Part shown: positions 11,304 through 62,527 of the stretch, piece by piece
How positions within the stretch are numbered: position 1 is the first letter of the stretch
Layout: the number at the start of each line of letters is the position of its first letter
Assembly (NCBI GenBank): GCA_015064185.1
Contig: SVSS01000003.1
Coordinates: 111,791-175,790 of the forward strand
Direction of reading: 5' to 3'
DNA length: 64,000 nt
Source: Oscillospiraceae bacterium
Lineage (GTDB): Bacteria; Bacillota; Clostridia; Oscillospirales; CAG-272
The notes under the pieces: model-generated
Database searches by the model: none
What the model saw: only the letters and a program-made list of their open reading frames with translations
Told to the model about the DNA's origin: nothing
Made by a program: the position numbers and the translations under genes

Positions 11304-12740
11304 TTATTGAAATCTTGGGGGTCTTCTTACCTCTGCCGCGCTAAAATCCGCCTCAAGATACCGCATAAATTCCGCATGCAGATCGGGGGCTAGCAGTGTT
11401 TTGCCAAAGTCACAGACCAGCGTGAAAAGGTCACGCTGAGAGATCTTTTGCAGCGCGCGACCGTCTGTCTTGTTGCAGTAGTCAAGGAAGCCCTCGTAAA
11501 AGGAAAAGGGGGACGTGATGTGCGACAGGATAAAGTGCAGAGTGTGGGCAAATCGCCCCTTCTCATGCAGGCGGTCAAGGATGTCCGAAATGCCGTGCAG
11601 GCGGTCAAGCTCCGCAAAGGAAAGCCACCGGGTTGTAAGCACGGTGTAAGGGGGTGTGGCAGAGTAAAGGATGCCGTGCTTTGCGGCATCGCGGCGAAGC
11701 GCCGTGCCGGGCAGAAGCTTGAGAAAGCCAAGCTGGAGCACGTCGCAATGCGGGTATGCCGCATCAAAGGATCTCGCAAAGGAGCGATAGTCCTCAAAGG
11801 GGAGCCCCGCGATAAGATCAAGGTGTACGTGCAGATTTCCCGCCTCCTTCAAGCGCCTCGCGGCAGCAAGCGTTCCCATAGCGCTTTGGTGGCGGCTGAT
11901 CGCCGCGAGTGTTTCCTCGTTGGTGCTTTGCAGACCGATCTCAAGGCGGATCTTCCCCTTGGGAAACTGCTTTAAAATGGCAAAGCTCTCCTCGTTAAGC
12001 AAGGATGCCGCGATCTCAAAATGGTAGCATTTGGTGTAGCGCGGGGAAAGCAAGCCCTGCCAAATGGCATTTGCGCGCGCACGGTCAAAATTAAAGGTGC
12101 GGTCTACTAATTTAACTGTTAAGGGTTGCTCAAATTTTTCAAACTCAAGCAGGTCGGCAAGTGTTTTCTCGGCACTTTTGGCGCGTACACCCTCGGTTAC
12201 CGAGGAAAGGCAAAAGGCGCAGGAAAAGGGACAGCCGCGCGCGCTTTCGTAGTATACAAGTGGGGAGATCGGCTCGTTTGGCGCATAATGCGTGCCGCGT
12301 GCGGTAAATTGGGCATCGGGCGCGCCTTGCATCAGCTTTGGCAGTGCCTGGCCCTGCTTTAGCGCGGCGGCAAGCGTAACGATCGCGTGCTCGCCCTCGC
12401 CCGTGATAACGGTGTCAATAAAATCAAGCGAGGTAAAGCGTGCGGTATCAAAGGATACCTCGGGGCCACCAAAGACAATTTTGCAGTTGGGGCGCACGGT
12501 TTTGAGGTCCCTTGCCAGCACCAGCATTTCCTTGATATTCCAGATGTAGCAGGAAAAGGAGTAGAGCGCGGCATTTGCTTCAACCAAGCGCGCAAGCACC
12601 GAGGCGGTGCGGTCGCGCAGCGTTGCCTCGGTGCAGTGCACCGCGGTGTAGCCTGCCTCCTCAAGTGCCGTTTTCAGGCACCGCATGGCAAGATTTGAGT
12701 GGGCAAAGGAGCCGTTTAACGTAAAAAGTTCAATTTTCAT
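11304..12740 (-). CDS. B12-binding-domain radical SAM protein with C-terminal extension (DUF4080-like architecture)
   Basis: The N-terminal region resembles a cobalamin-binding domain. CPFSCAFC cluster motif. About 150-aa C-terminal extension. Confidence 0.75.
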   Translation of the reverse strand: MKIELFTLNGSFAHSNLAMRCLKTALEEAGYTAVHCTEATLRDRTASVLARLVEANAALYSFSCYIWNIKEMLVLARDLKTVRPNCKIVFGGPEVSFDTARFTSLDFIDTVITGEGEHAIVTLAAALKQGQALPKLMQGAPDAQFTARGTHYAPNEPISPLVYYESARGCPFSCAFCLSSVTEGVRAKSAEKTLADLLEFEKFEQPLTVKLVDRTFNFDRARANAIWQGLLSPRYTKCYHFEIAASLLNEESFAILKQFPKGKIRLEIGLQSTNEETLAAISRHQSAMGTLAAARRLKEAGNLHVHLDLIAGLPFEDYRSFARSFDAAYPHCDVLQLGFLKLLPGTALRRDAAKHGILYSATPPYTVLTTRWLSFAELDRLHGISDILDRLHEKGRFAHTLHFILSHITSPFSFYEGFLDYCNKTDGRALQKISQRDLFTLVCDFGKTLLAPDLHAEFMRYLEADFSAAEVRRPPRFQ

Positions 12741-26502: not shown

Positions 26503-26590
26503 GCCGGAATGGCGGAACTGGCAGACGCCCGGGACTTAAAATCCCGTGATACTTAGTATCGTACCGGTTCGATCCCGGCTTCCGGCACCA
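26503..26590 (+). tRNA. tRNA-Leu (anticodon TAA), long variable arm, CCA encoded
   Basis: Acceptor gccggaa/ttccggc, anticodon loop cttaaaa, long variable arm gtgatacttagtatcgt, T loop ggttcgatcc. Confidence 0.9.
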
Positions 26591-26605: not shown

Positions 26606-26683
26606 CGCGGGGTAGAGCAGCTTGGTAGCTCGTCGGGCTCATAACCCGGAGGCCGTGTGGTTCAAATCCCACCCCCGCAACCA
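26606..26683 (+). tRNA. tRNA-Met (anticodon CAT) with initiator hallmarks
   Basis: Almost collinear with bacterial initiator tRNA: a C1/A72 mismatch and three consecutive G-C pairs in the anticodon stem (cggg-ctcataa-cccg). It is one nt longer than expected, which places a bulged T in the T stem (gtg-t-gg/cccac). Confidence 0.8.
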
Positions 26684-26689
26684 AAAAAA

Positions 26690-26720
26690 TTCCTCGGACT
26701 TGTTCCGAGGATATTTTTTT
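26690..26720 (+). terminator. Intrinsic terminator of the tRNA operon
   Basis: cctcgga-cttgt-tccgagg followed by a T7 run. Confidence 0.65.
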
Positions 26721-26814
26721 ACCTCTTCACTTTTCACTCTTCACTCTTCACTTTTCTCCCTCCGCAGAGGAATTTTTTTTGGAGGTAATAAGTAATAGTG
26801 AATAGTGAAAAGGT
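26721..26814. repeat. Imperfect palindrome built from heptamer repeats (copy 1)
   Basis: Left arm tcttcac/ttttcac x5, centre ccgcagaggaatttttttt, right arm gtaataa/gtaatag/tgaatag/tgaaaag. Confidence 0.7.
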
Positions 26815-26824
26815 ATTAGATGTA

Positions 26825-26846
26825 GCTTTTCGCTGTGGCGAAAAGC
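26825..26846. repeat. Short hairpin gcttttcgc-tgtg-gcgaaaagc (family copy 1)
   Basis: Perfect 9-bp stem. Related copies at 28883-28907 and 62591-62612. Confidence 0.7.
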
Positions 26847-26864
26847 ATTTTTTATTATATCAGG

Positions 26865-26893
26865 TTGAAAAGTAATAGGTTTTATGGTATAAT
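26865..26893 (+). promoter_or_regulatory. Near-consensus promoter of cassette 1
   Basis: TTGAAA, 17-nt spacer, TATAAT, about 30 nt upstream of the four-helix-bundle ORF. Confidence 0.5.
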
Positions 26894-26923
26894 TATTATA
26901 ACAAAGTAAAAGGCGGTAAGGTT

Positions 26924-27277
26924 ATGGCTGACAGTCCTTTGATAGTGAAATCTAAAGCGTTTGCGCTTGATGTGATACAGGTATGCAAGGAACTCAGAGT
27001 GGCAAAGTGCGAGAGTGCTTTGATCAATCAGTTTTTACGCTCGGGAACAAGCATAGGTGCGAATATCAGAGAAGCTTTTTATGCTCACGGAAAGGCTGAT
27101 TTTATTGCTAAACTGCAAATAGCTTTGAAAGAGTGTTCCGAAACGGAATATTGGATTGAACTTATTTTAGAAAGTGGATATTATCACGACAAAACCTTGC
27201 TCGATAAATGTACGGAGCTAAAAAGGATTTTAATTTCTTCCCTTAATACAGCAAAAGCAAATCAAGATAATAAATAA
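26924..27277 (+). CDS. Four-helix-bundle protein (23S rRNA intervening-sequence protein family)
   Basis: Family hallmark QFLRSGTSIGANIREA...KADFIAKLQIALKECSETEYWIELI. 117 aa. RBS aaaaggcgg. Confidence 0.8.
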   Translation: MADSPLIVKSKAFALDVIQVCKELRVAKCESALINQFLRSGTSIGANIREAFYAHGKADFIAKLQIALKECSETEYWIELILESGYYHDKTLLDKCTELKRILISSLNTAKANQDNK

Positions 27278-27349
27278 ATCTCAAAAAAGCACTGGACTTC
27301 TCGCGATCTTTCGGTATAATGAGTGTTACCACCCGAAAGGAGCGCGAAA

Positions 27350-27565
27350 ATGATAGACTTAAAGCCCTATTATCAAGTAAAACTGACTCTTTGCCGTTGT
27401 ATGTCATACTATCTCATCAATCCCCCGAAAACCGAGAACGAAAAATACGCTTACGACATTATTCAAAAGGCGTATTGGATAAACGAGAAAAAGATTGAAA
27501 TGCTTGATTTTGATAAAAGCAAAAAACTACTCCAAGATTATTATAAATTTCAAATAAACAAATGA
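27350..27565 (+). CDS. Hypothetical protein (71 aa)
   Basis: RBS aaaggag upstream of the ATG at 27350. The stop overlaps the next start (ATGA). No recognisable motif. Confidence 0.5.
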   Translation: MIDLKPYYQVKLTLCRCMSYYLINPPKTENEKYAYDIIQKAYWINEKKIEMLDFDKSKKLLQDYYKFQINK

Positions 27566-28269
27566 ATGGTGGTGATAAGGTGAAAAACTTTGTAGGTTTT
27601 ACCTCAAACGGTGAATATTCCGTTGGTTGCACAGGGCAAACGGTATATTTATATGACAAAGGTGGCAAGGAGCTTGCAAAATTCAAGGATTTGAGATATG
27701 CTTATTCTCCTATGATTTCACCTGACGGAAAAATTCTCGTTATAAAGTCAACGGAAGGTAGGCTTGCGGTTTATTCGCTTGAATCTCACACACTTGTAAA
27801 AAAATTCCGCTTCTCAAAGGTTGACGGTTCGCAGGATGATAATTTCTGCTTTTCACCCGATAGCAAGGAATTTTATAATATTGAGCGACACATTGACAGC
27901 TGTAAAACTGCTCTTTCAATATACGATACATCAGATTTTTCTTTGAAAAAGAAAATTCTGCATGATGATTTCATCCTTGTTCTGACAGCAGTCGAGTATG
28001 ATACCGAAGAAAACAAGGTATTTCTGTTAGGGTATATGCGAGAGTCTGAAAGTGGGGTTGCGTATAAATTTTTTGTGGGAGAACTTGTAAAAAACAGCCT
28101 ACAAAGCATTGTGTACATAAGTCAAAAAGAGCACGACTTTTATTTGGATTGTAAAAGCTTTGAAATTCATTCTTTTGCAGTTACAGATTGCTATACCCCT
28201 GACGAGATAGGTAGAATCAAAAACGCCAAGCACTCATTGGCGAAACTATGGAAATACTATTCAAAATAA
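27562..28269 (+). CDS. Hypothetical protein with beta-propeller-like (PD40/WD40-like) repeats
   Basis: Repeated blade-like strings SPDGKILVIKSTEGRLAVYSL and FSPDSKEFYNIE. Translationally coupled to the upstream ORF. AT-rich codon usage. Confidence 0.55.
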   Translation: MNGGDKVKNFVGFTSNGEYSVGCTGQTVYLYDKGGKELAKFKDLRYAYSPMISPDGKILVIKSTEGRLAVYSLESHTLVKKFRFSKVDGSQDDNFCFSPDSKEFYNIERHIDSCKTALSIYDTSDFSLKKKILHDDFILVLTAVEYDTEENKVFLLGYMRESESGVAYKFFVGELVKNSLQSIVYISQKEHDFYLDCKSFEIHSFAVTDCYTPDEIGRIKNAKHSLAKLWKYYSK

Positions 28270-28302
28270 TTGGCATCTATTAAGGATGCACAACACAAAA
28301 AA

Positions 28303-28336
28303 GAAAACACCCCCTCGTGGGGTGTTTTCTTTTTTG
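28303..28336. terminator. Bidirectional intrinsic terminator after cassette-1 cargo
   Basis: gaaaacacccc-ctcg-tggggtgttttc flanked by A and T runs. Confidence 0.65.
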
Positions 28337-28499
28337 TCCACGGGGCTTGCGTTTTGAACCCTGCGGCGTGCCATTACTGTGGAAGCTGTAAGCATAATGC
28401 CGCCGCAGAGAAGGTTGCCGTTTTTGCAAAGCAAAATGGTCGGCGGTGCCGACAAGGCAACCTTTAAACGTGCGAGCGAAGCGAGCAAAGTGGGGCAAC

Positions 28500-28550
28500 A
28501 TCCCACCCCCGCAACCAAAGACTTGTTGAAAAACGAGTCTTCTTTTTTTC
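28500..28550 (+). repeat. Direct copy of the tRNA-Met 3' end (20 nt) plus its own terminator hairpin
   Basis: atcccacccccgcaaccaaa is identical to 26666-26685. It is followed by the hairpin gacttgt/acgagtc and a T run. Confidence 0.8.
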
Positions 28551-28735
28551 CCTTTGGCAAAAATGGTGCTGGGGTGAGGTTTGAGCCTCACGAGCTACGC
28601 TCTATGACCTGAGCATTCAAGCCCTACGGGCACAGAATGCCGTCGGGGTCTATGCTTGCCGTCTAAGGCGGCAACATACTGCGTCATTTTGCGTGTCCGA
28701 CCGCAAAATAGCAGATAACCCATTCCCAGCTTTTT

Positions 28736-28786
28736 TCAAATCCCACTCCCGCAACCAAAAAGAAAAGTCGCGCAAGCGGCTTTTTT
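28736..28786 (+). repeat. Second direct copy of the tRNA-Met 3' end (26 nt, 1 mismatch) plus terminator-like hairpin
   Basis: tcaaatcccacTcccgcaaccaaaaa compared with 26662-26687. It is followed by gtcgc-gcaa-gcggc and a T run. Confidence 0.8.
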
Positions 28787-28788
28787 GT

Positions 28789-28880
28789 ACTTTTCACTAT
28801 TCTCTTTTCACTCTTCACTTTTCTCTTACTCTCCCGCGCGACTTTTCCGGAGAAGAGATAAGAAGAGAGAAAAGAAAAGG
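28789..28880. repeat. Imperfect palindrome built from heptamer repeats (copy 2)
   Basis: ttttcac/tattctc/ttttcac/tcttcac/ttttctc, centre cgcgcgacttttc, then a purine-rich right arm ggagaagagataagaagagagaaaagaaaagg. Confidence 0.7.
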
Positions 28881-28882
28881 TA

Positions 28883-28907
28883 GCTTTTCTCCCTTTGGTC
28901 GAAAAGC
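28883..28907. repeat. Short hairpin, degenerate family copy 2
   Basis: gcttttc...gaaaagc in the same position relative to the palindrome and promoter as copy 1. Confidence 0.6.
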
Positions 28908-28908
28908 A

Positions 28909-28936
28909 TTGATTTTTAGTTAAAATGTGATATAAT
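28909..28936 (+). promoter_or_regulatory. Promoter of cassette 2 (extended -10)
   Basis: TTGATT, 16-nt spacer ending in TGa, TATAAT. Confidence 0.5.
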
Positions 28937-28959
28937 GATTTCAAAGAGAGGTGAAGACA

Positions 28960-29118
28960 ATGAATAGCCCCTTACTTGAAAAATTAATGGATTTCGCAAC
29001 GCAAATTGTGCTTTTCTACGAAGAATTTTCAAAGAGTAAAAAGGATACGACGATCGCAAAGCAATTATTGCGTTCTGCCACAAACGTGGGTGCGAAAACA
29101 AACGAAAACGAAGGTTGA
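28960..29118 (+). pseudogene. Truncated four-helix-bundle ORF (52 codons)
   Basis: MNSPLLEKLMDFATQIVLFYEEF...IAKQLLRSATNVGAKTNENEG stops inside the family core motif (compare QFLRSGTSIGANIREA in the intact copy). Confidence 0.65.
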
Positions 29119-29147
29119 TTTTTTGTTAAGCTGAAAGGATTACACAT

Positions 29148-31247
29148 ATGATTAAATCAATACTAAAGGGGATAAAATCGCCCGATAAAGAATTTTCGCC
29201 TATTCCCTTTTGGTTTTTGAATGATACTTTAACGGATGAGGAAATCGCACGTCAGCTTTGCGATTTTCACGATAAGGGGATTTTTGGAGTAGTGCTCCAT
29301 CCTAGAATCGGTATTCCCGAGTCAACAACCTACCTTTCAGACCAATTTATGCATTTCATAAAGGTTGCCGTACAAACGGCAGCAGGTCTTGGCATGTCGG
29401 TTGTTCTATATGACGAAGCGATGTACCCGTCAGGAAGTGCGCACGGGTTGGTCGTCGCCGAAAACCCAAAATTTGCGGCACAGGCAATTGTTCTGACAGA
29501 GGATTGTACTGAGGGAAAGCTTATTGCAAAATGCAAGAGTGGAAAATATATCGTTCAGGTTAACAGCGGTGGAACGATACGCGGAATTCATTACGGAGAG
29601 GACGACTTTGAGGAAAACGCGCCGCCTGCGGCAGATCTTTTGTCACAGGCATCGGTCGATACCTTTATCATGTTGACCTATCAAAGATATTTTGATGTTG
29701 TTGGCGAGTATTTTGGCAGTACCGTGATTGGTTTCTTTACCGATGAGCCGTCGGTACTCGGTCGTTGCTGCAGAAAAAATTGTTTTCCTTTTACCTGGGA
29801 TTTCGAAATTGATTTTGAAAAAGCAGGCGGAAGGCTCGACGAGCTTGAAGGTCTGTTTACGGGCGAGGAAAACGAAAGCACAATTCTATATCGTAAAATG
29901 ATCTTTCAGCGCGAGCTTGATATTTATTATGAATCGCTCCACCGTTTTTGTGCGGAGCACGGTATCGCCCTTATGGGACACCCTCATTTTGGTGATGATA
30001 TCGAATGTGAGAGGTATTTTGATATCCCCGGACAGGATATGGTATTAAGATGGGTTGCCCCCGAAAAGGATCCGCTTGGCGGCAGGGAAAGCGCGCAGGG
30101 CAAATGCTCCTCGGATGCGGCTCGCATAAGCGGAAAAAGGAGAAATTCCAACGAGTGCTTTGGCGTTTGCGTCAGAAACGATATCCCCTGGTATTTCACG
30201 GGAGCAGATATGAAATGGTATATTGACTATCTCGGAGTTCGTGGAGTAAATATGTTTATCCCACACGCGTTCTATTACAGCGTAAGAGGAAAAAGAAAGG
30301 ATGAAAGACCTCCGGATGTCGGTCCTAACAATATATGGTGGGAGCATTACGGTCAGATTTCCGATTATATAAAGCGCATATCCTATATTATGACCGATTC
30401 CGCAAACGAAGCGCGCGTTGTCGTAATGTGTGAAAACCGCGATATGCGAATAGACAAAGTAAGAGAATTCTATGAGAATCAAGTGGAGTTCAATTATCTG
30501 CCCTACGCTGATTTTCACCCGGATATGGTCCAGGGAAATTCGCTTGTCGTAGGTAAAAATGTCTATACCTATGTATGCTGCGATGACAATGAGCGCGTTC
30601 CCTCCCTGCAAAAAATAGAGGGAATTAAAGATCTCGGATACCGTGATATTTATACAGAAAATCCCTGCCCCACGCTCCGAGTCTCGCGCATTCAAAAAAA
30701 CGGTGTCCGAATGATTTTTCTGACCAACGAGGGTGACACAGATATTGTCACGCAGGCTTCTATCGATGATGCAACCGAGCTTATCTTTATTGATCTTTGG
30801 ACCGGATGCTATTGGAAACAGGAATGTAAGCGATACAACGGAAAAACGCATTTTGATCTTTCGATGAAATATCGCGAGAGCTTACTGTTGATCCTTGATT
30901 GTAATGGGACAGTCGACGCACCCTTACAAAATAAAAAGGAATATGCTTCCGTTGATTTCAGAATGATCCACCACGATGAGACAAAGTATATAAAAACATA
31001 CGCCGGTAGCTTAAATGCGGACAAGGTAAACAATGAAAACTTATGGATATCTGTGGATGCTGAGGAAATGGTCGAATGCTTTGTAAACGGTAATTTCGTA
31101 GGTGTCAGTCTTTGGAACAGGCATGAGTTCAATTTAGCGTCTTATCTCCACAGCGGAGAAAATGAAATTCTTTTAAGAGTAACCGGAAATGCGGCAAACC
31201 GATTTACTAATTATAAGATTCCATACGGCCTTAACAATGATGCCTGA
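29148..31247 (+). CDS. Putative glycoside hydrolase (GH106-like N-terminal region plus C-terminal jelly-roll / sugar-binding-like domain)
   Basis: N-terminal PIPFWFLND...GIFGVVLHPRIG...YLSDQFM...VVLYDEAMYPSG pattern recalled from rhamnosidase-like hydrolases. The C-terminal NGNFVGVSLWNRHEFNL...ENEILLRVTGN is galactose-binding-like. The family assignment is from memory and unverified. Confidence 0.5.
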   Translation: MIKSILKGIKSPDKEFSPIPFWFLNDTLTDEEIARQLCDFHDKGIFGVVLHPRIGIPESTTYLSDQFMHFIKVAVQTAAGLGMSVVLYDEAMYPSGSAHGLVVAENPKFAAQAIVLTEDCTEGKLIAKCKSGKYIVQVNSGGTIRGIHYGEDDFEENAPPAADLLSQASVDTFIMLTYQRYFDVVGEYFGSTVIGFFTDEPSVLGRCCRKNCFPFTWDFEIDFEKAGGRLDELEGLFTGEENESTILYRKMIFQRELDIYYESLHRFCAEHGIALMGHPHFGDDIECERYFDIPGQDMVLRWVAPEKDPLGGRESAQGKCSSDAARISGKRRNSNECFGVCVRNDIPWYFTGADMKWYIDYLGVRGVNMFIPHAFYYSVRGKRKDERPPDVGPNNIWWEHYGQISDYIKRISYIMTDSANEARVVVMCENRDMRIDKVREFYENQVEFNYLPYADFHPDMVQGNSLVVGKNVYTYVCCDDNERVPSLQKIEGIKDLGYRDIYTENPCPTLRVSRIQKNGVRMIFLTNEGDTDIVTQASIDDATELIFIDLWTGCYWKQECKRYNGKTHFDLSMKYRESLLLILDCNGTVDAPLQNKKEYASVDFRMIHHDETKYIKTYAGSLNADKVNNENLWISVDAEEMVECFVNGNFVGVSLWNRHEFNLASYLHSGENEILLRVTGNAANRFTNYKIPYGLNNDA

Positions 31248-31321
31248 TTATAAAAACAAGCGGGGCTTTGATTTCATTGACTTTTTGAGGTTGACATCTA
31301 TTTAGGCTGTACAACACAAAA

Positions 31322-31357
31322 CGAAAAAGCACCCCTTGTGGGTGCTTTTTTCGTTTT
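31322..31357. terminator. Bidirectional intrinsic terminator after cassette-2 cargo
   Basis: gaaaaagcaccc-cttg-tgggtgctttttc, preceded by a conserved 30-nt box shared with 28270-28302. Confidence 0.65.
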
Positions 31358-31373
31358 GCTTGCCCTTGGCAAG

Positions 31374-31393
31374 GCGGGGGTGGGATTTGAACC
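31374..31393 (-). repeat. Inverted copy of the tRNA-Met T-loop/acceptor segment (20 nt)
   Basis: The reverse complement ggttcaaatcccacccccgc is identical to 26659-26678 and then diverges (cttgcca). Confidence 0.75.
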
Positions 31394-31480
31394 ATGCGAA
31401 GGAGGCGCATGGGGCGACCTTTGGTCGCATCAGACCGAGCACGCGATGGTAGCGTTTGGTAATGAACGTGCCGTATTTTA

Positions 31481-32299
31481 TTATTTTGCCTCATCTTTTT
31501 CATTATAGTAATTTCTTGTATCTTCAGCACATTTTTCGATACGTTCCATTATTCCATCTTCGTATATATCAGCATAAAGAAAATCTTTAAGATTTATCTC
31601 CCCTTCGGGGCGCTGGTAGGATTTTTCGGGATCGATGGGGGGATATCTCAGCACAAAATGTACGGAATAGAATGAAATGCCCGATCGATCTAATAATTCC
31701 TTTGTTTTTAACAGTATTTCGGCTGCCTTTTCGTTCGTTACGGTGTCGCTGTCGATATACAGTACGAGCTTTCCGTTTTTAGCTCCCAGCTCGCCTACGT
31801 TATAAAATCTGTCGTTGACAAGCTCACTTCTCTTGATGGCGCCTTCCACCGCTTCCGTACCGACCTCGCGCTCAAATTCCAAGTCACCGTACCCCATAGA
31901 TACGGTGTAAGGATAAGATCGGCTGCCAAGAACGGTATCTACCATTTCACGGTACTCAAAAAACAATCTGTTCGCCACATTTCCGTGTCCCTGAACGCGT
32001 GAGCTGTAATCATCATATCTTAACTTGCCAAACATGGAGATCCGCAATGTAAAATGACCATCCATGCTGCTGGGGGATACGATGTGAGCGTAATATCCGC
32101 CGTCCTTAAAGCTATAGGATACCTCTTCTATCGTATAATCGGTATTAGGATAGGTTGCTTCAAGGTGTTTTTCTGCTGTGTGTCGAGCCACCATTTTTGA
32201 AATGGGATTACCCACAAGCCCATTTGCGAACCAACAAACCCCGACGATCAAAACAATAGCCAAACATAGAGCTGATATTTTTAGAATCCGTTTTTTCAT
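31481..32299 (-). CDS. Membrane-anchored hypothetical protein, third gene of the ECF operon
   Basis: N-terminal TM ISALCLAIVLIVGVCWF. A 4-nt overlap with the anti-sigma gene. No catalytic motif recognised. Confidence 0.55.
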   Translation of the reverse strand: MKKRILKISALCLAIVLIVGVCWFANGLVGNPISKMVARHTAEKHLEATYPNTDYTIEEVSYSFKDGGYYAHIVSPSSMDGHFTLRISMFGKLRYDDYSSRVQGHGNVANRLFFEYREMVDTVLGSRSYPYTVSMGYGDLEFEREVGTEAVEGAIKRSELVNDRFYNVGELGAKNGKLVLYIDSDTVTNEKAAEILLKTKELLDRSGISFYSVHFVLRYPPIDPEKSYQRPEGEINLKDFLYADIYEDGIMERIEKCAEDTRNYYNEKDEAK

Positions 32300-32850
32300 T
32301 TTTTATCCTCCTTCCGAAGGGCGAAATGTAAGAGAAAAGCGATCGTCACTCCGATGAGGACAAAGATGGCATACAACACGGTCCACATAAGCGTATCCGC
32401 AAAGCCTAACTCCACAAGTTGAAAAGCGAATATGGCAAGGTCGATGAAAAGCAACAACACGGGTACTTTATAAACCGCTTTCCATTTGAATACGTAATAT
32501 CCAAAAATGCCAACGACCGGCATAATCAAGCTATTGTACATGAGGTTATTGCCTGCAGTCCACCCGAAGCCAAGGAAAATTAAAAATATGAGCGCGGCAT
32601 AAGCAATAGAATAAAACTGTTTGTTCATACGTTTCATCATTTTCTTGAAAGACTTTGCATCATCAGACATTTGAACAGGCTTTGCTTCGGTCGTTGATAG
32701 CTCCGCGCCCTCTTTCAAATTTACAAGCTCTCTTTGACATTCGTCACAACCTTTCAGATGCTCGTTTATATACTGCGCCGTTTCTGTGCTGACCATGTTT
32801 TCAATGTAAAGTGGGAGCAGGTCCCTTGTTACACTACATTCCGTTTTCAC
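32296..32850 (-). CDS. Anti-sigma factor (zf-HC2 type) with multi-TM C-terminal region
   Basis: N-terminal C...H-x3-C-x2-C pattern (CSVTRDLLPLYIEN...HLKGCDECQ) followed by four hydrophobic segments. Overlaps the sigma gene. Confidence 0.7.
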   Translation of the reverse strand: MKTECSVTRDLLPLYIENMVSTETAQYINEHLKGCDECQRELVNLKEGAELSTTEAKPVQMSDDAKSFKKMMKRMNKQFYSIAYAALIFLIFLGFGWTAGNNLMYNSLIMPVVGIFGYYVFKWKAVYKVPVLLLFIDLAIFAFQLVELGFADTLMWTVLYAIFVLIGVTIAFLLHFALRKEDKK

Positions 32851-33343
32851 CGTTCTTGCCCTCCAATCTTTCTTTAATCATTTTTCGCGCTCGGTGATAG
32901 GTGACGCAAGCCCAATTCTCGGTCTTGCCAAAGATCTCGGCAATTTGCTTGAACGAGAGCTGTGCATACACACGCCACAGAAATACTTCCTTGTATGGCT
33001 CACTAACATTGTGCAAAGCTTTTTGTATTCGCTCGATCTCGTCACGTCGGGCACACTCCTCTGCCACGCTTGGGGCGAGGTCGGGTATCTCCTGCATTTT
33101 GGCTTCGTCAATGTGTTCTGTTCGATTGCTTTTCTTTGTATAGGAATAATAACAGTTTTTTGCTATTTGGCAAAGCCAAACGCGCACGTCACAATCGCCG
33201 CGGAAGCTGTCGATCGATTTCATTGCTTTGAAGAAGGTATCACTTGTTATTTCTTCGGCCATATGTTCGTTTCCCGAAAGCCGCAGAATATACAAGTAAA
33301 CATCGTTAAAATAGGTATTGTACAGCTGCTCAAAATCTGTCAC
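32834..33343 (-). CDS. ECF-type sigma-70 family RNA polymerase sigma factor
   Basis: Region 2 (YNTYFNDVYLYILRLSGNEHMAEEITSDTFFKA) and region 4 HTH (LSFKQIAEIFGKTENWACVTYHRARKMI). GTG start at 33343 with RBS aaggagg at 7-nt spacing. Confidence 0.8.
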   Translation of the reverse strand: MTDFEQLYNTYFNDVYLYILRLSGNEHMAEEITSDTFFKAMKSIDSFRGDCDVRVWLCQIAKNCYYSYTKKSNRTEHIDEAKMQEIPDLAPSVAEECARRDEIERIQKALHNVSEPYKEVFLWRVYAQLSFKQIAEIFGKTENWACVTYHRARKMIKERLEGKNGENGM

Positions 33344-33525
33344 GCCATCACCTCCTTCACTTATAAGACTCCGAAGAAAAGAAAATCTTACAACCTTTTT
33401 TCTTAGTATACCATATTTTGTCTTGCAATGTGTGAATAAGGGTGTTGATTCTTTCGAATATGCACATATTCGGGCTTTTTCGTTTTGCTTCCGCAAACGC
33501 GGGGATCACACTTATGGGGGCACTA

Positions 33526-33585: not shown

Positions 33586-34140
33586 ATGGAGTTCGGAGAA
33601 AAAACGTTATACCAAGAGGCGCGCTCGGTGATAGCGGAAATTGCAGAAAAGGCAAATTTAAAAAGGGGCAGTATTTTGGTGATCGGTTGCTCGACCAGCG
33701 AGATCGTGGGTGCGAAGATCGGCACCAATTCGGCACCCGCGGTGGCGGCAGAGGTCTTTGGTGCATTTTTGGATTATGCAAAGGAAAATGGCATCTATCT
33801 TGCAGTGCAGTGCTGTGAGCATCTGAACCGTGCCATTGTGATCGAGCGTACGGCAGCCGCCGGGCTTGAGATCGTTAACGCGGTTCCGCAGCCCAAGGCG
33901 GGCGGCTCTATGGCAACGCAGGCGTATGCCATGCTGCAAGACCCTGTTGTGGTAGAAGAAATAAAAGCCGACGCGGGCATAGATATCGGCTTTACGCTCA
34001 TTGGCATGCACCTTAAGCGCGTGGCGGTGCCCGTACGGCTTGAAAGCAATCGCATTGGAGAAGCGACTGTTGTTGCGGCGCGCACGCGCCCCAAGTTTAT
34101 CGGCGGAGTAAGAGCCGTTTACGATGAAACGATGCTGTGA
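33586..34140 (+). CDS. UPF0340 / TIGR01440-family protein (YwlG-like)
   Basis: ILVIGCSTSEI...GIYLAVQCCEHLNRAIV...PKAGGSMA...GMHLK pattern characteristic of this family. Confidence 0.7.
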   Translation: MEFGEKTLYQEARSVIAEIAEKANLKRGSILVIGCSTSEIVGAKIGTNSAPAVAAEVFGAFLDYAKENGIYLAVQCCEHLNRAIVIERTAAAGLEIVNAVPQPKAGGSMATQAYAMLQDPVVVEEIKADAGIDIGFTLIGMHLKRVAVPVRLESNRIGEATVVAARTRPKFIGGVRAVYDETML

Positions 34141-34190: not shown

Positions 34191-34264
34191 GTAGGGGCGA
34201 TTCACGAATCGCCCGCCTCAAATGGCATAAAAACAAAAACGGGCGATTCGTGAATCGCCCCTAC
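34191..34264. repeat. Pair of REP-like palindromic units in inverted arrangement
   Basis: gtaggggcgattcacgaatcgcccg ... cgggcgattcgtgaatcgcccctac. Each unit is itself a hairpin. A third unit lies at 62492-62527. Confidence 0.85.
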
Positions 34265-62491: not shown

Positions 62492-62527
62492 CATCATAGG
62501 GGCGATTCGTGAATCGCCCCTATGATG
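62492..62527. repeat. REP-like palindromic unit (third copy)
   Basis: catcataggggcgattcgtgaatcgcccctatgatg, the same core as at 34191-34264. Confidence 0.85.

Follow-up and report, generated by a model that had tools for sequence, protein, structure and literature searches.

A 64-kb stretch of an Oscillospiraceae genome (contig SVSS01000003.1; this whole stretch is called the window, and coordinates are window positions) contains a stack of small cassettes that lie behind an initiator tRNA-Met gene and carry no recombinase gene. The reading that we favour, with moderate confidence, is that an enzyme encoded elsewhere has moved these cassettes, recombining site-specifically within the T-loop of the tRNA gene. 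Displaced copies of a tRNA 3' end are ordinary. What is new here is a head unit, made of a long hairpin and a gene for a four-helix-bundle (4HB) protein, that is tied to tRNA 3' ends and opens cassettes without mobility genes. The original prediction, made from the letters of the window, overlooked that these cassettes belong to a widespread and strongly conserved hairpin and 4HB family, which is found behind at least five tRNA identities. No description of a tRNA-linked 4HB unit was found in the literature searched.

Cassettes behind the initiator tRNA-Met gene

The tRNA-Met(cat) gene that anchors the stack shows, on inspection, a C1xA72 mismatch and a GGG/CCC anticodon stem. Both are marks of the bacterial initiator tRNA, and the gene is therefore of the initiator type. 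Its 20-mer ATCCCACCCCCGCAACCAAA, at 26666-26685, recurs at 28500-28519 (20/20) and at 28740-28759 (19/20); allowing up to two mismatches, there are three matches in the window compared with none in 100 dinucleotide shuffles. The exact 20-nucleotide direct copy of the original prediction thus stands, while its one-mismatch copy, given as 26 nucleotides at 28736-28761, extends to 27 nucleotides (26/27, 28735-28761) and its inverted copy, given as 20 nucleotides at 31374-31393, is one base longer (21/21, 31374-31394). These are not low-complexity strings. The 3'-end copies mark boundaries of recombination and insertion, and the tRNA gene and each direct copy are followed, as had been described, by their own terminator hairpin and T run (26691-26711, 28518-28541 and 28761-28786). 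The predicted AT-rich character of the region was also borne out, with a GC content of 0.365-0.44 across 27-33 kb versus 0.51-0.57 (about 0.54) in most of the other 1-kb windows. All the accessory genes that had been listed were recovered: the 4HB gene, two hypothetical genes, a glycoside hydrolase (GH) gene of GH106-like type and an extracytoplasmic function (ECF) sigma/anti-sigma operon.

Three insertions can be delimited. Cassette A (26684-28519) consists of a head unit with its 4HB gene, two open reading frames (ORFs) and the tail unit E1; relic B (28520-28761) has only a tail unit; and cassette C (28762 to about 31385) opens with another head unit, whose 4HB gene is truncated, and continues with a GH106-like gene and the tail unit E3. 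The limits of each are copies of the tRNA stretch between T-loop and CCA. The tail units E1, E2 and E3 share a layout of a bidirectional terminator, an inverted T-arm-like piece and a GC-rich spacer. E1 and E2 end in a direct tRNA copy and stand before copies 2 and 3, and E3 lies behind the GH gene. The inverted pieces at 28342-28365 and 28566-28596 are degenerate and were missed in the original prediction. The second of these, GTGAGGCTCAAACCTCACCCCAGCACCA, is a minus-strand tRNA-like 3' end with CCA that derives from a tRNA other than Met and opens the 185-nucleotide unit of relic B. Within the same relic, GCTGGGA at 28723-28729 is complementary to this piece over seven nucleotides, six of which pair.

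We compared the interval between the tRNA-Met gene and the DUF436 gene in relatives. Contigs with identical flanking proteins occur in many ruminant-gut metagenomes and their block is 99.7-100% identical, so that they represent one strain or species; these same-strain contigs (comparison loci L001-L017 and L109-L112) are uninformative on the empty site. A DUF436 scan with one genome per species gave 80 loci from metagenome-assembled genomes of ruminant-gut and human-gut Clostridia, and the content of the interval differed in each of the six relatives examined (L018, L019, L020, L021, L024 and L025). In the closest, L018 (DUF436 98% identical), the nucleotide identity is 97% from 31317 rightward, including the sigma/anti-sigma/YfjL operon, while upstream the GH, 4HB and p235 genes are lacking and a LysR gene, a membrane protein gene and an SGNH-like gene lie between two E3 units. 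L019 (DUF436 91%) carries one E3 unit and the operon, which is 83% identical at the nucleotide level, and in L020 to L022 (about 84%) the operon is absent. L021 has a 3' fragment of tRNA-Met without the tRNA, followed by a GH43-like gene and DUF436; in L024 tRNA-Leu/tRNA-Met lie 9 kb upstream of DUF436 with unrelated genes between; and L025 has an E-type unit that ends in its own tRNA-Met 3' end. The variable cassette content that had been predicted was therefore found, but an exact empty site, with tRNA-Met joined straight to DUF436, was not found among the 80 loci.

The right-hand limit of the recent insertions is marked by a break in identity. When the window is aligned with L018 and L019, the T-loop of the inverted copy (TTTGAACC), at about 31385, separates near-identity on its right from patchy divergence on its left, and against L018b the identity is about 98-100% from TTTGAACC rightwards. 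This indicates a recombination breakpoint inside the T-loop, at which the recent variable block ends. The inverted copy is perfect in the window (21/21) and L018 differs from it at four positions. Identity to the tRNA begins at T54 in copy 3 and in the L021, L025 and L101 units, and at C56 in L138. The ECF sigma operon had been counted as part of the island, but its conservation beside DUF436 in L018 and L019 places it in an older accessory block outside the recent insertions. Of the proposed composite of at least two or three integrations, at least two cassettes and one relic are indeed stacked, while the operon lies outside this recent stack. The interval is thus a long-standing hotspot, the recent part of which ends at E3.

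A head-unit family shared by several tRNA genes

The head unit of cassette A (26684-27277) consists, in order after the CCA, of a terminator, a long hairpin, a second small terminator, a promoter and the 4HB gene. The left arm of the hairpin is built of 7-nucleotide repeats, (T[CT]TTCAC)n, whose number varies between genomes. Its apex is an inverted copy of CCA, the A-tract and the left half of terminator T1. The right arm is GTAATAAGTAATAGTGAATAGTGAAAAGGT (30 nucleotides, 26785-26814; right-arm sequence GTAATAAGTAATAGTGAATAGTGAAAAGG), identical in the window, L113, L123, L133-L138 and others. This identity, found although synonymous sites of the 4HB gene are near saturation, shows that the arm is constrained at the nucleotide level. 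The apex complements NCCA, the A-tract and the left half of its own terminator over 13-21 nucleotides, and it does not match other terminator types (6-12 nucleotides). This co-variation holds for four terminator types, or five when L168 is counted; either the pairing is important, or both segments undergo joint homogenisation.

From look-ups around 4HB homologues and from pattern scans we collected about 18 independent junctions; a single metagenome pattern scan gave seven short loci only. Head units were found behind tRNA-Leu/tRNA-Met (L113), tRNA-Met (L148/L149 and L155), a 47-nucleotide 3' half of tRNA-Met (L134), tRNA-Gln(ctg) (L123-L132, L160-L165 and L166, the last with two tandem hairpin units), tRNA-Ser(tga) (L133/L137), tRNA-Ser(gct) (L135 and L140/L141/L147), tRNA-Tyr(gta) (L168) and bare tRNA 3'-end fragments (L136, L138, L153, L154 and L157). 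Five tRNA identities (Met, Gln, Ser(tga), Ser(gct) and Tyr) therefore carry the unit. In every context it starts exactly after the CCA, and the hosts are gut Firmicutes. Homology begins at the terminator and stops with the 4HB stop codon, and the cargo beyond it differs (GNAT, PNP, HTH regulators and small ORFs). The head units are 68-91% identical to one another and the tRNA parts are unrelated. No mobility gene was found inside a cassette in any of these roughly 18 contexts or in the window, and where both ends are visible the cassettes measure 1.0-1.9 kb.

A direct repeat of the tRNA 3' segment stands at the far end of the insertion in the window, L113, L123 and L138. In L123 a perfect 29-nucleotide tRNA-Gln 3' repeat flanks a 1051-bp element of 4HB and GNAT genes, and in L113 a tRNA-Met repeat (22/23) lies 1216 bp downstream; both match the adjacent tRNA gene. 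In L154 and L157 the repeat, which lies about 1.1 kb downstream, is tRNA-Met-like and decayed. A far-end repeat at 1.05-1.2 kb is thus seen in these four contexts other than the window. Filled and empty alleles exist in one species, in which L138 and L137 have 99.5% identical flanks and L138 carries an extra 193 nucleotides right after the tRNA-Ser CCA. The insertion comprises a terminator, 15-16 nucleotides of the tRNA-Ser T-arm in inverted orientation, about 110 nucleotides of spacer and a 21-nucleotide duplicate of the tRNA 3' end. Its spacer shares the 12-mer TTTTGCAAAGCA with E1 of the window (found by eye; chance estimated at roughly 0.003). L101, a contig of the same metagenome series, has three tandem tail-type units, each ending in TTCAAATCCCACCCCCGCAACCA and a terminator.

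The 4HB gene is the sole gene common to the whole family. Its product was assigned to PF05635/TIGR02436 with 81.3 bits for the Pfam profile (cut-off 33.8) and 99.4 bits for TIGR02436 (cut-off 24), and it matched PDB 2RLD with E = 1.2e-22. More than 8000 homologues are in the database, and the best 120 are 84-97% identical (one partial at 55%) and mostly on very short contigs. Across eight 4HB genes the mean pN was 0.05 and the mean pS 0.70, indicating very strong purifying selection with synonymous sites near saturation. High protein identity was accordingly rejected as a sign of recent horizontal transfer, because it reflects constraint. We infer that the cassette family depends for its own maintenance on two parts, the 4HB protein and the invariant right hairpin arm. 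Repeats of the GTAATAG type are present also in the promoter of the 4HB gene itself, and the protein may bind such repeats. Avd is a cofactor of the reverse transcriptase in diversity-generating retroelements (DGRs). PF05635 is the Pfam signature of this protein (PMC10053308). Neither hallmark of a DGR was seen: there was no reverse transcriptase domain in the window or in the listed cassette contexts, and a repeat search gave no pair resembling a template and a variable repeat. In the literature searched we found no role for PF05635/TIGR02436 beyond DGRs and rRNA intervening sequences.

Several variants of the head unit and of the cargo ends were observed. In one metagenome sample of the same strain, the apex of hairpin 1 is interrupted by an IS3-family element, which follows CTCCCTCCG directly and whose OrfA starts MKRTFSKEFKIEACKLV (L111:1-200, about window position 26765). 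In L017:1-240, window positions 28861-28983 are joined to 27284, which places the p71/p235 cargo behind a head unit of type 2 with no more than eight codons of the 4HB ORF left; head units and cargo are thus reshuffled at the promoter region just after the 4HB gene. Other long composite hairpins follow a terminator and precede cargo or a 51%-identical 4HB gene at L025:483-720 and L036:5790-5990 (minus strand). They are built of other short repeated motifs (AATGATG/CATCATT; GTGATATTCG/CGAATATCAC), and the architecture of the hairpin seems more conserved than its sequence. At the end of cargo genes, AATGCATCTTTTTCGGCACCTCTACTCAAAAAA stands before a terminator in the unrelated genomes L113 (4777-4808) and L025 (700-732), with shorter versions, ATCTTTTTCGG, in L025, L153 and L166. 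A plasmid or phage origin of the head unit was not adopted, as PLSDB gave no match and INPHARED one weak partial match. The features of the locus, including a second long hairpin and a truncated 4HB gene that the original prediction had missed, are collected in the table.

Table. Features of the tRNA-Met to DUF436 interval and its borders, in window positions
Feature	Position	Strand	Remarks
tRNA-Leu(taa)	26503-26590	+	ARAGORN; Rfam 45.6 bits; first of the tRNA pair
tRNA-Met(cat), anchor	26606-26683	+	ARAGORN and Rfam; T-loop TTCAAAT at 26661-26667; CCA ends at 26683
Terminator T1	26684-26720	+	Directly after CCA, opens head unit 1; A-tract, stem TCCTCGGA/TCCGAGGA, T run
Long imperfect hairpin 1	26721-26815	+	Fold z = -6.4 versus shuffles
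Second small terminator hairpin	26825-26846	+	Conserved in head-unit alignment
Promoter of 4HB gene	26865-26893	+	Consensus TTGAAA-17-TATAAT with TG; conserved in alignment
4HB gene	26924-27277	+	117 aa; PF05635 23S_rRNA_IVP/TIGR02436
Cargo of cassette A	27293-28269	+	GC 0.365; second promoter 27293-27320
p71	27350-27565	+	71-aa ORF without family assignment
p235	27562-28269	+	235-aa ORF without family assignment
Tail unit E1 of cassette A	28295-28494	+	Bidirectional terminator 28295-28337; degenerate inverted T-arm-like piece 28342-28365; GC-rich spacer with TTTTGCAAAGCA
tRNA-Met 3'-end copy 2	28490-28519	+	T-stem GTGGG/CCCAC intact, T-loop altered; A59 through CCA plus AA 20/20
Relic B (E2)	28518-28734	+	Own terminator 28518-28541, then 185-nucleotide unit
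tRNA-Met 3'-end copy 3	28735-28761	+	26/27; identity begins exactly at T54 of the T-loop
Head unit 2	28761-29118	+	Diverged; after copy 3; terminator 28761-28786
Second long pyrimidine/purine hairpin	28790-28880	+	Part of head unit 2
Promoter of head unit 2	28909-28936	+	
Truncated 4HB gene	28960-29118	+	52 aa; head unit 2
Cargo of cassette C	29148-31247	+	699-aa GH106-like/alpha-L-rhamnosidase-like protein; absent from closest relative L018
Tail unit E3	31293-31510	-	Bidirectional terminator 31323-31351; inverted tRNA-Met 3' copy 31374-31394 (21/21); spacer
YfjL-like/zf-HC2 anti-sigma/ECF sigma operon	31481-33343	-	AT-rich; next to DUF436 in L018 and L019
DUF436/TIGR01440 (UPF0340) gene	33586-34140	+	Conserved right flank of the variable interval

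Proposed movement of the cassettes and alternative explanations

In the scheme that we favour, small cassettes would have been inserted serially into the 3' part of tRNA-Met, from 26684 to about 31385, with the newest nearest the tRNA. A site-specific recombinase crossing over in the T-loop would account for insertion, excision and inversion, the arms of the T-stem being its putative core sites; the T-loop is a classic sublocation for tRNA-targeting integrases. Each cassette would supply a replacement tRNA 3' end and terminator, so that the tRNA stays functional. The gene for the recombinase itself would lie at another place in the genome or on a helper element, since neither the gene calls nor the ORFs across the 64-kb window showed an integrase, recombinase or reverse transcriptase domain. 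The claim that the window lacks a recombinase ORF thus survived domain searches, and mobilisation in trans or decay was the right conclusion to draw from it. The type of the enzyme, its action in trans and the roles of the 4HB protein and hairpin are what we infer from this arrangement.

At L101:2091-8507 and 11480-11906 and at L153:183-6359, which are IMG/VR contigs of the same metagenome series, large serine recombinase genes are clustered in threes or fours beside arrays of tRNA-Met-ended units or a hairpin-only head unit. These genes, like those near the array of L160, look like separate insertions; in L160/L163 they follow a truncated leucine-rich repeat gene, which is consistent with such an origin, and we did not adopt any of them as the missing enzyme. 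A search for phage attP sites with a 22-mer returned ordinary tRNA-Met genes or phage att sites that reach into the anticodon loop and are of a different class, only L101 being relevant.

A number of observations weigh against movement by a T-loop recombinase. No partner recombinase or autonomous relative with the same att core was found, and L140 and L148 have no downstream repeat within 6 kb. Related head units, among which one terminator type is shared, abut at least five tRNA 3' ends exactly at the CCA, a spread that an att core borne by the element would predict only if cores had been exchanged many times over. The length of the duplicated segment is not constant (18-20, 21, 23, 29-32 and about 47 nucleotides), which is unusual for a single integrase, and the 193-bp unit is very small as a double-stranded circular substrate of recombination. 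Some tail units contain the local T-arm as an inverted copy, and inverted copies cannot come from simple integration at tRNA-Met. Stops of a reverse transcriptase at modified tRNA bases were considered as the cause of the varying repeat length and set aside as speculation, only the 18-nucleotide copy 2 (A59-A76) fitting.

These features raise the alternative, possible but in our judgement unlikely, that the cassettes and their small tail units form an undescribed family of non-autonomous elements, able to home to tRNA genes of essentially any identity, at the 3' end, without a fixed att sequence. The target would be recognised through tRNA structure, through CCA and terminator, or through a tRNA or RNA guide, with base-pairing by the apex complement or by the inverted T-arm copies; the repeats from T-loop to CCA would be target duplications, and an enzyme acting in trans, possibly a reverse transcriptase, would have the Avd-like 4HB protein as its cofactor. 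Such homing would fit the invariable junction after the CCA of five tRNA identities and of fragments among head units that are 68-91% identical, the agreement, in L113 and L123, between the flanking repeat and the tRNA gene next to it, the variable length of the duplication, the lack of a recombinase in every cassette, and the Avd signature of PF05635 (PMC10053308). It would also fit the inverted copies of the local T-arm in E3 and in the tail unit of L138 (L138u), but these are absent from the cassettes of L113 and L123 and from cassette A of the window. The complementarity of the hairpin apex to NCCA and trailer, co-varying over five terminator types, could suggest a guide, yet the terminator belongs to the element, and the complementarity may be an internal structural feature. 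Moreover, none of the copies has a linked reverse transcriptase or nuclease, and breakpoints centred on the T-loop are the product of classical integrases. With synonymous sites near saturation, slow retargeting with co-evolving att cores, as in tycheposon families, could suffice for the five-tRNA spread.

It is improbable that nothing moves at all and that the stack consists of dead remnants of integrase-bearing islands or prophages at tRNA-Met, whose integrases were deleted and for which the 4HB gene was a common cargo next to attL. The window without a recombinase, the truncated second 4HB gene, the degenerate copies (the altered T-loop of copy 2 and the decayed inverted piece of E1) and the block that is 100% identical across many metagenome samples are all in keeping with decay, and growing islands typically contain degenerate elements and partial tRNAs (bioRxiv 10.1101/2020.12.28.424599). 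However, about 18 independent contexts uniformly lack mobility genes and are compact (1.0-1.9 kb), which argues that the family is non-autonomous by design and did not decay repeatedly and independently. The very strong purifying selection on the 4HB gene, the invariant hairpin arm and the recent polymorphisms (L138 versus L137, the head-unit swap of L017 and the perfect 21/21 inverted copy against L018) also speak against inert remnants. We regard it as highly improbable that the units at 28336-28519, 28556-28761 and 31357-31480 are structured small RNA genes with tRNA-like ends, or a decayed tRNA array. Each has its own terminator, is GC-rich and folds somewhat better than shuffles (z = -2.2 to -2.9), and ARAGORN at an 80% threshold calls a permuted transfer-messenger RNA (tmRNA) on the minus strand at 28564-28730. 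At its default threshold, though, ARAGORN finds nothing there, the predicted tag peptide is unlike a tmRNA tag, and relaxing the Rfam search to E <= 10 yields no match. The 5' strands of the T-stem are missing, only the tRNA-derived ends and short motifs are conserved between genomes, and the units coincide with boundaries of presence/absence polymorphism. We therefore rejected the tmRNA or tRNA-pseudogene reading of these intergenic units, which depended on a low-threshold call with an implausible tag.

Comparison with known systems and neighbouring features

A close parallel is offered by the tycheposon islands of Prochlorococcus, which grow by serial integration at tRNA genes and contain partial tRNA copies and degenerate elements (bioRxiv 10.1101/2020.12.28.424599). 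Like the cassettes described here, tycheposons use the 3' part of tRNA genes, including tRNA-Met and tRNA-Ser, and partial copies separate tandem elements; newer elements displace older ones from the tRNA, remnants and cargo pile up, and inversions occur. Tycheposons carry a tyrosine recombinase and replication genes, whereas neither is present in the window's cassettes and no mobility gene of any kind in the cassettes of about 18 contexts. The cassettes measure only about 0.2-2.7 kb, share one conserved gene, for the 4HB protein, behind a conserved hairpin, and reside in gut Clostridia. Cis-mobilizable elements (CIMEs) retain attL and attR and have lost the integration genes (PMC6323972). Those of streptococcal integrative and conjugative element (ICE) families resemble the cassettes in their attL/attR-like repeats, their lack of integration and transfer genes and their tandem arrangement at a hotspot, and cassette A, flanked by repeats and without mobility genes, shows attL/attR retention of the CIME type. 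CIMEs, however, are recognisable deletion derivatives of known ICEs at the same att site, and here no parent or helper was found: no ICE or integrative and mobilizable element sharing the att site was seen in the window, in the 80 related loci or among viral-contig and metagenome matches. A further difference is that one and the same head unit is found here behind a number of distinct tRNAs. Small modules without a recombinase are also known as the pdif modules of Acinetobacter and as shufflon-type arrays, bounded by short direct and inverted sites and served by an enzyme encoded elsewhere. The cassettes resemble them in being recombinase-less modules between short sites in both orientations, but the sites here are chromosomal tRNA T-arm/acceptor segments, unlike the XerC/D or sfx sites on plasmids.

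The 4HB gene shares its family with the ORFs of 23S rRNA intervening sequences, which likewise lie beside a stable-RNA gene and are associated with a long stem. Here the gene lies behind a tRNA and not inside 23S rRNA, and the hairpin is wholly upstream and does not enclose the ORF. The reverse transcriptase and the template/variable repeat pair that accompany Avd in DGRs are both lacking in its neighbourhood. Integron cassettes depend on an intI/attI platform and a 3' attC hairpin, whereas no integrase was found here and the conserved hairpin is at the 5' end; no GTTRRRY/RYYYAAC integron core was seen by eye in the cassettes. Palindrome-associated elements derived from IS200/IS605 have subterminal hairpins and insert 3' of a short target without duplicating it, by means of a Y1 transposase in the genome. 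Here a hairpin stands by the left junction and insertion is always 3' of CCA, but there are 18-30-nucleotide duplications, and a Y1_Tnp gene was seen only as a separate polymorphic insertion. The latter, at L141:8626-9099, is an IS200-type Y1 transposase gene that is absent from the otherwise identical L140 and lies at the distal end of the 4HB-headed block behind tRNA-Ser(gct).

The growth of islands at tRNA genes is usually traced to elements with their own integrase, and this locus suggests another route in gut Clostridia. Much of the traffic there may run through cassettes of 1-2 kb in which nothing is conserved except a near-invariant hairpin arm and an Avd-like 4HB protein under very strong selection. 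A link of the 4HB protein to cassette mobility or maintenance at tRNA genes, if true, would give the PF05635/TIGR02436 family a role. The signature of CCA, terminator, (TTCAC)n hairpin and 4HB gene would locate insertion hotspots and their cargo in metagenomes, and the cargo behind it includes glycoside hydrolases, acetyltransferases and regulators. If targeting proves to be independent of a fixed att sequence, it would represent a new way of homing to bacterial tRNA genes.

PADLOC gave no defence matches for the 4HB, p71, p235, GH and YfjL genes, and a defence-system reading was therefore rejected. Rfam, at the gathering cut-off and at E <= 10, reported nothing in the window other than the two tRNAs, and no rRNA genes. 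Elsewhere in the window, the terminator of a tRNA-Gly(ccc) gene (854-990) forms an extended hairpin, the right half of which, CCCCTTTTGCTTTGGAGCA, pairs with the tRNA's own 3' end and trailer; the arrangement is the same as the pairing between CCA plus trailer and apex in the cassette head unit. Downstream of DUF436 there is a perfect 25-nucleotide inverted repeat at 34191-34264 (GTAGGGGCGATTCACGAATCGCCCG and its complement). The same motif recurs at 62493-62522 of the window and in a related genome (L020:1682-1712), and it thus looks like a family of repeats resembling repetitive extragenic palindromes.

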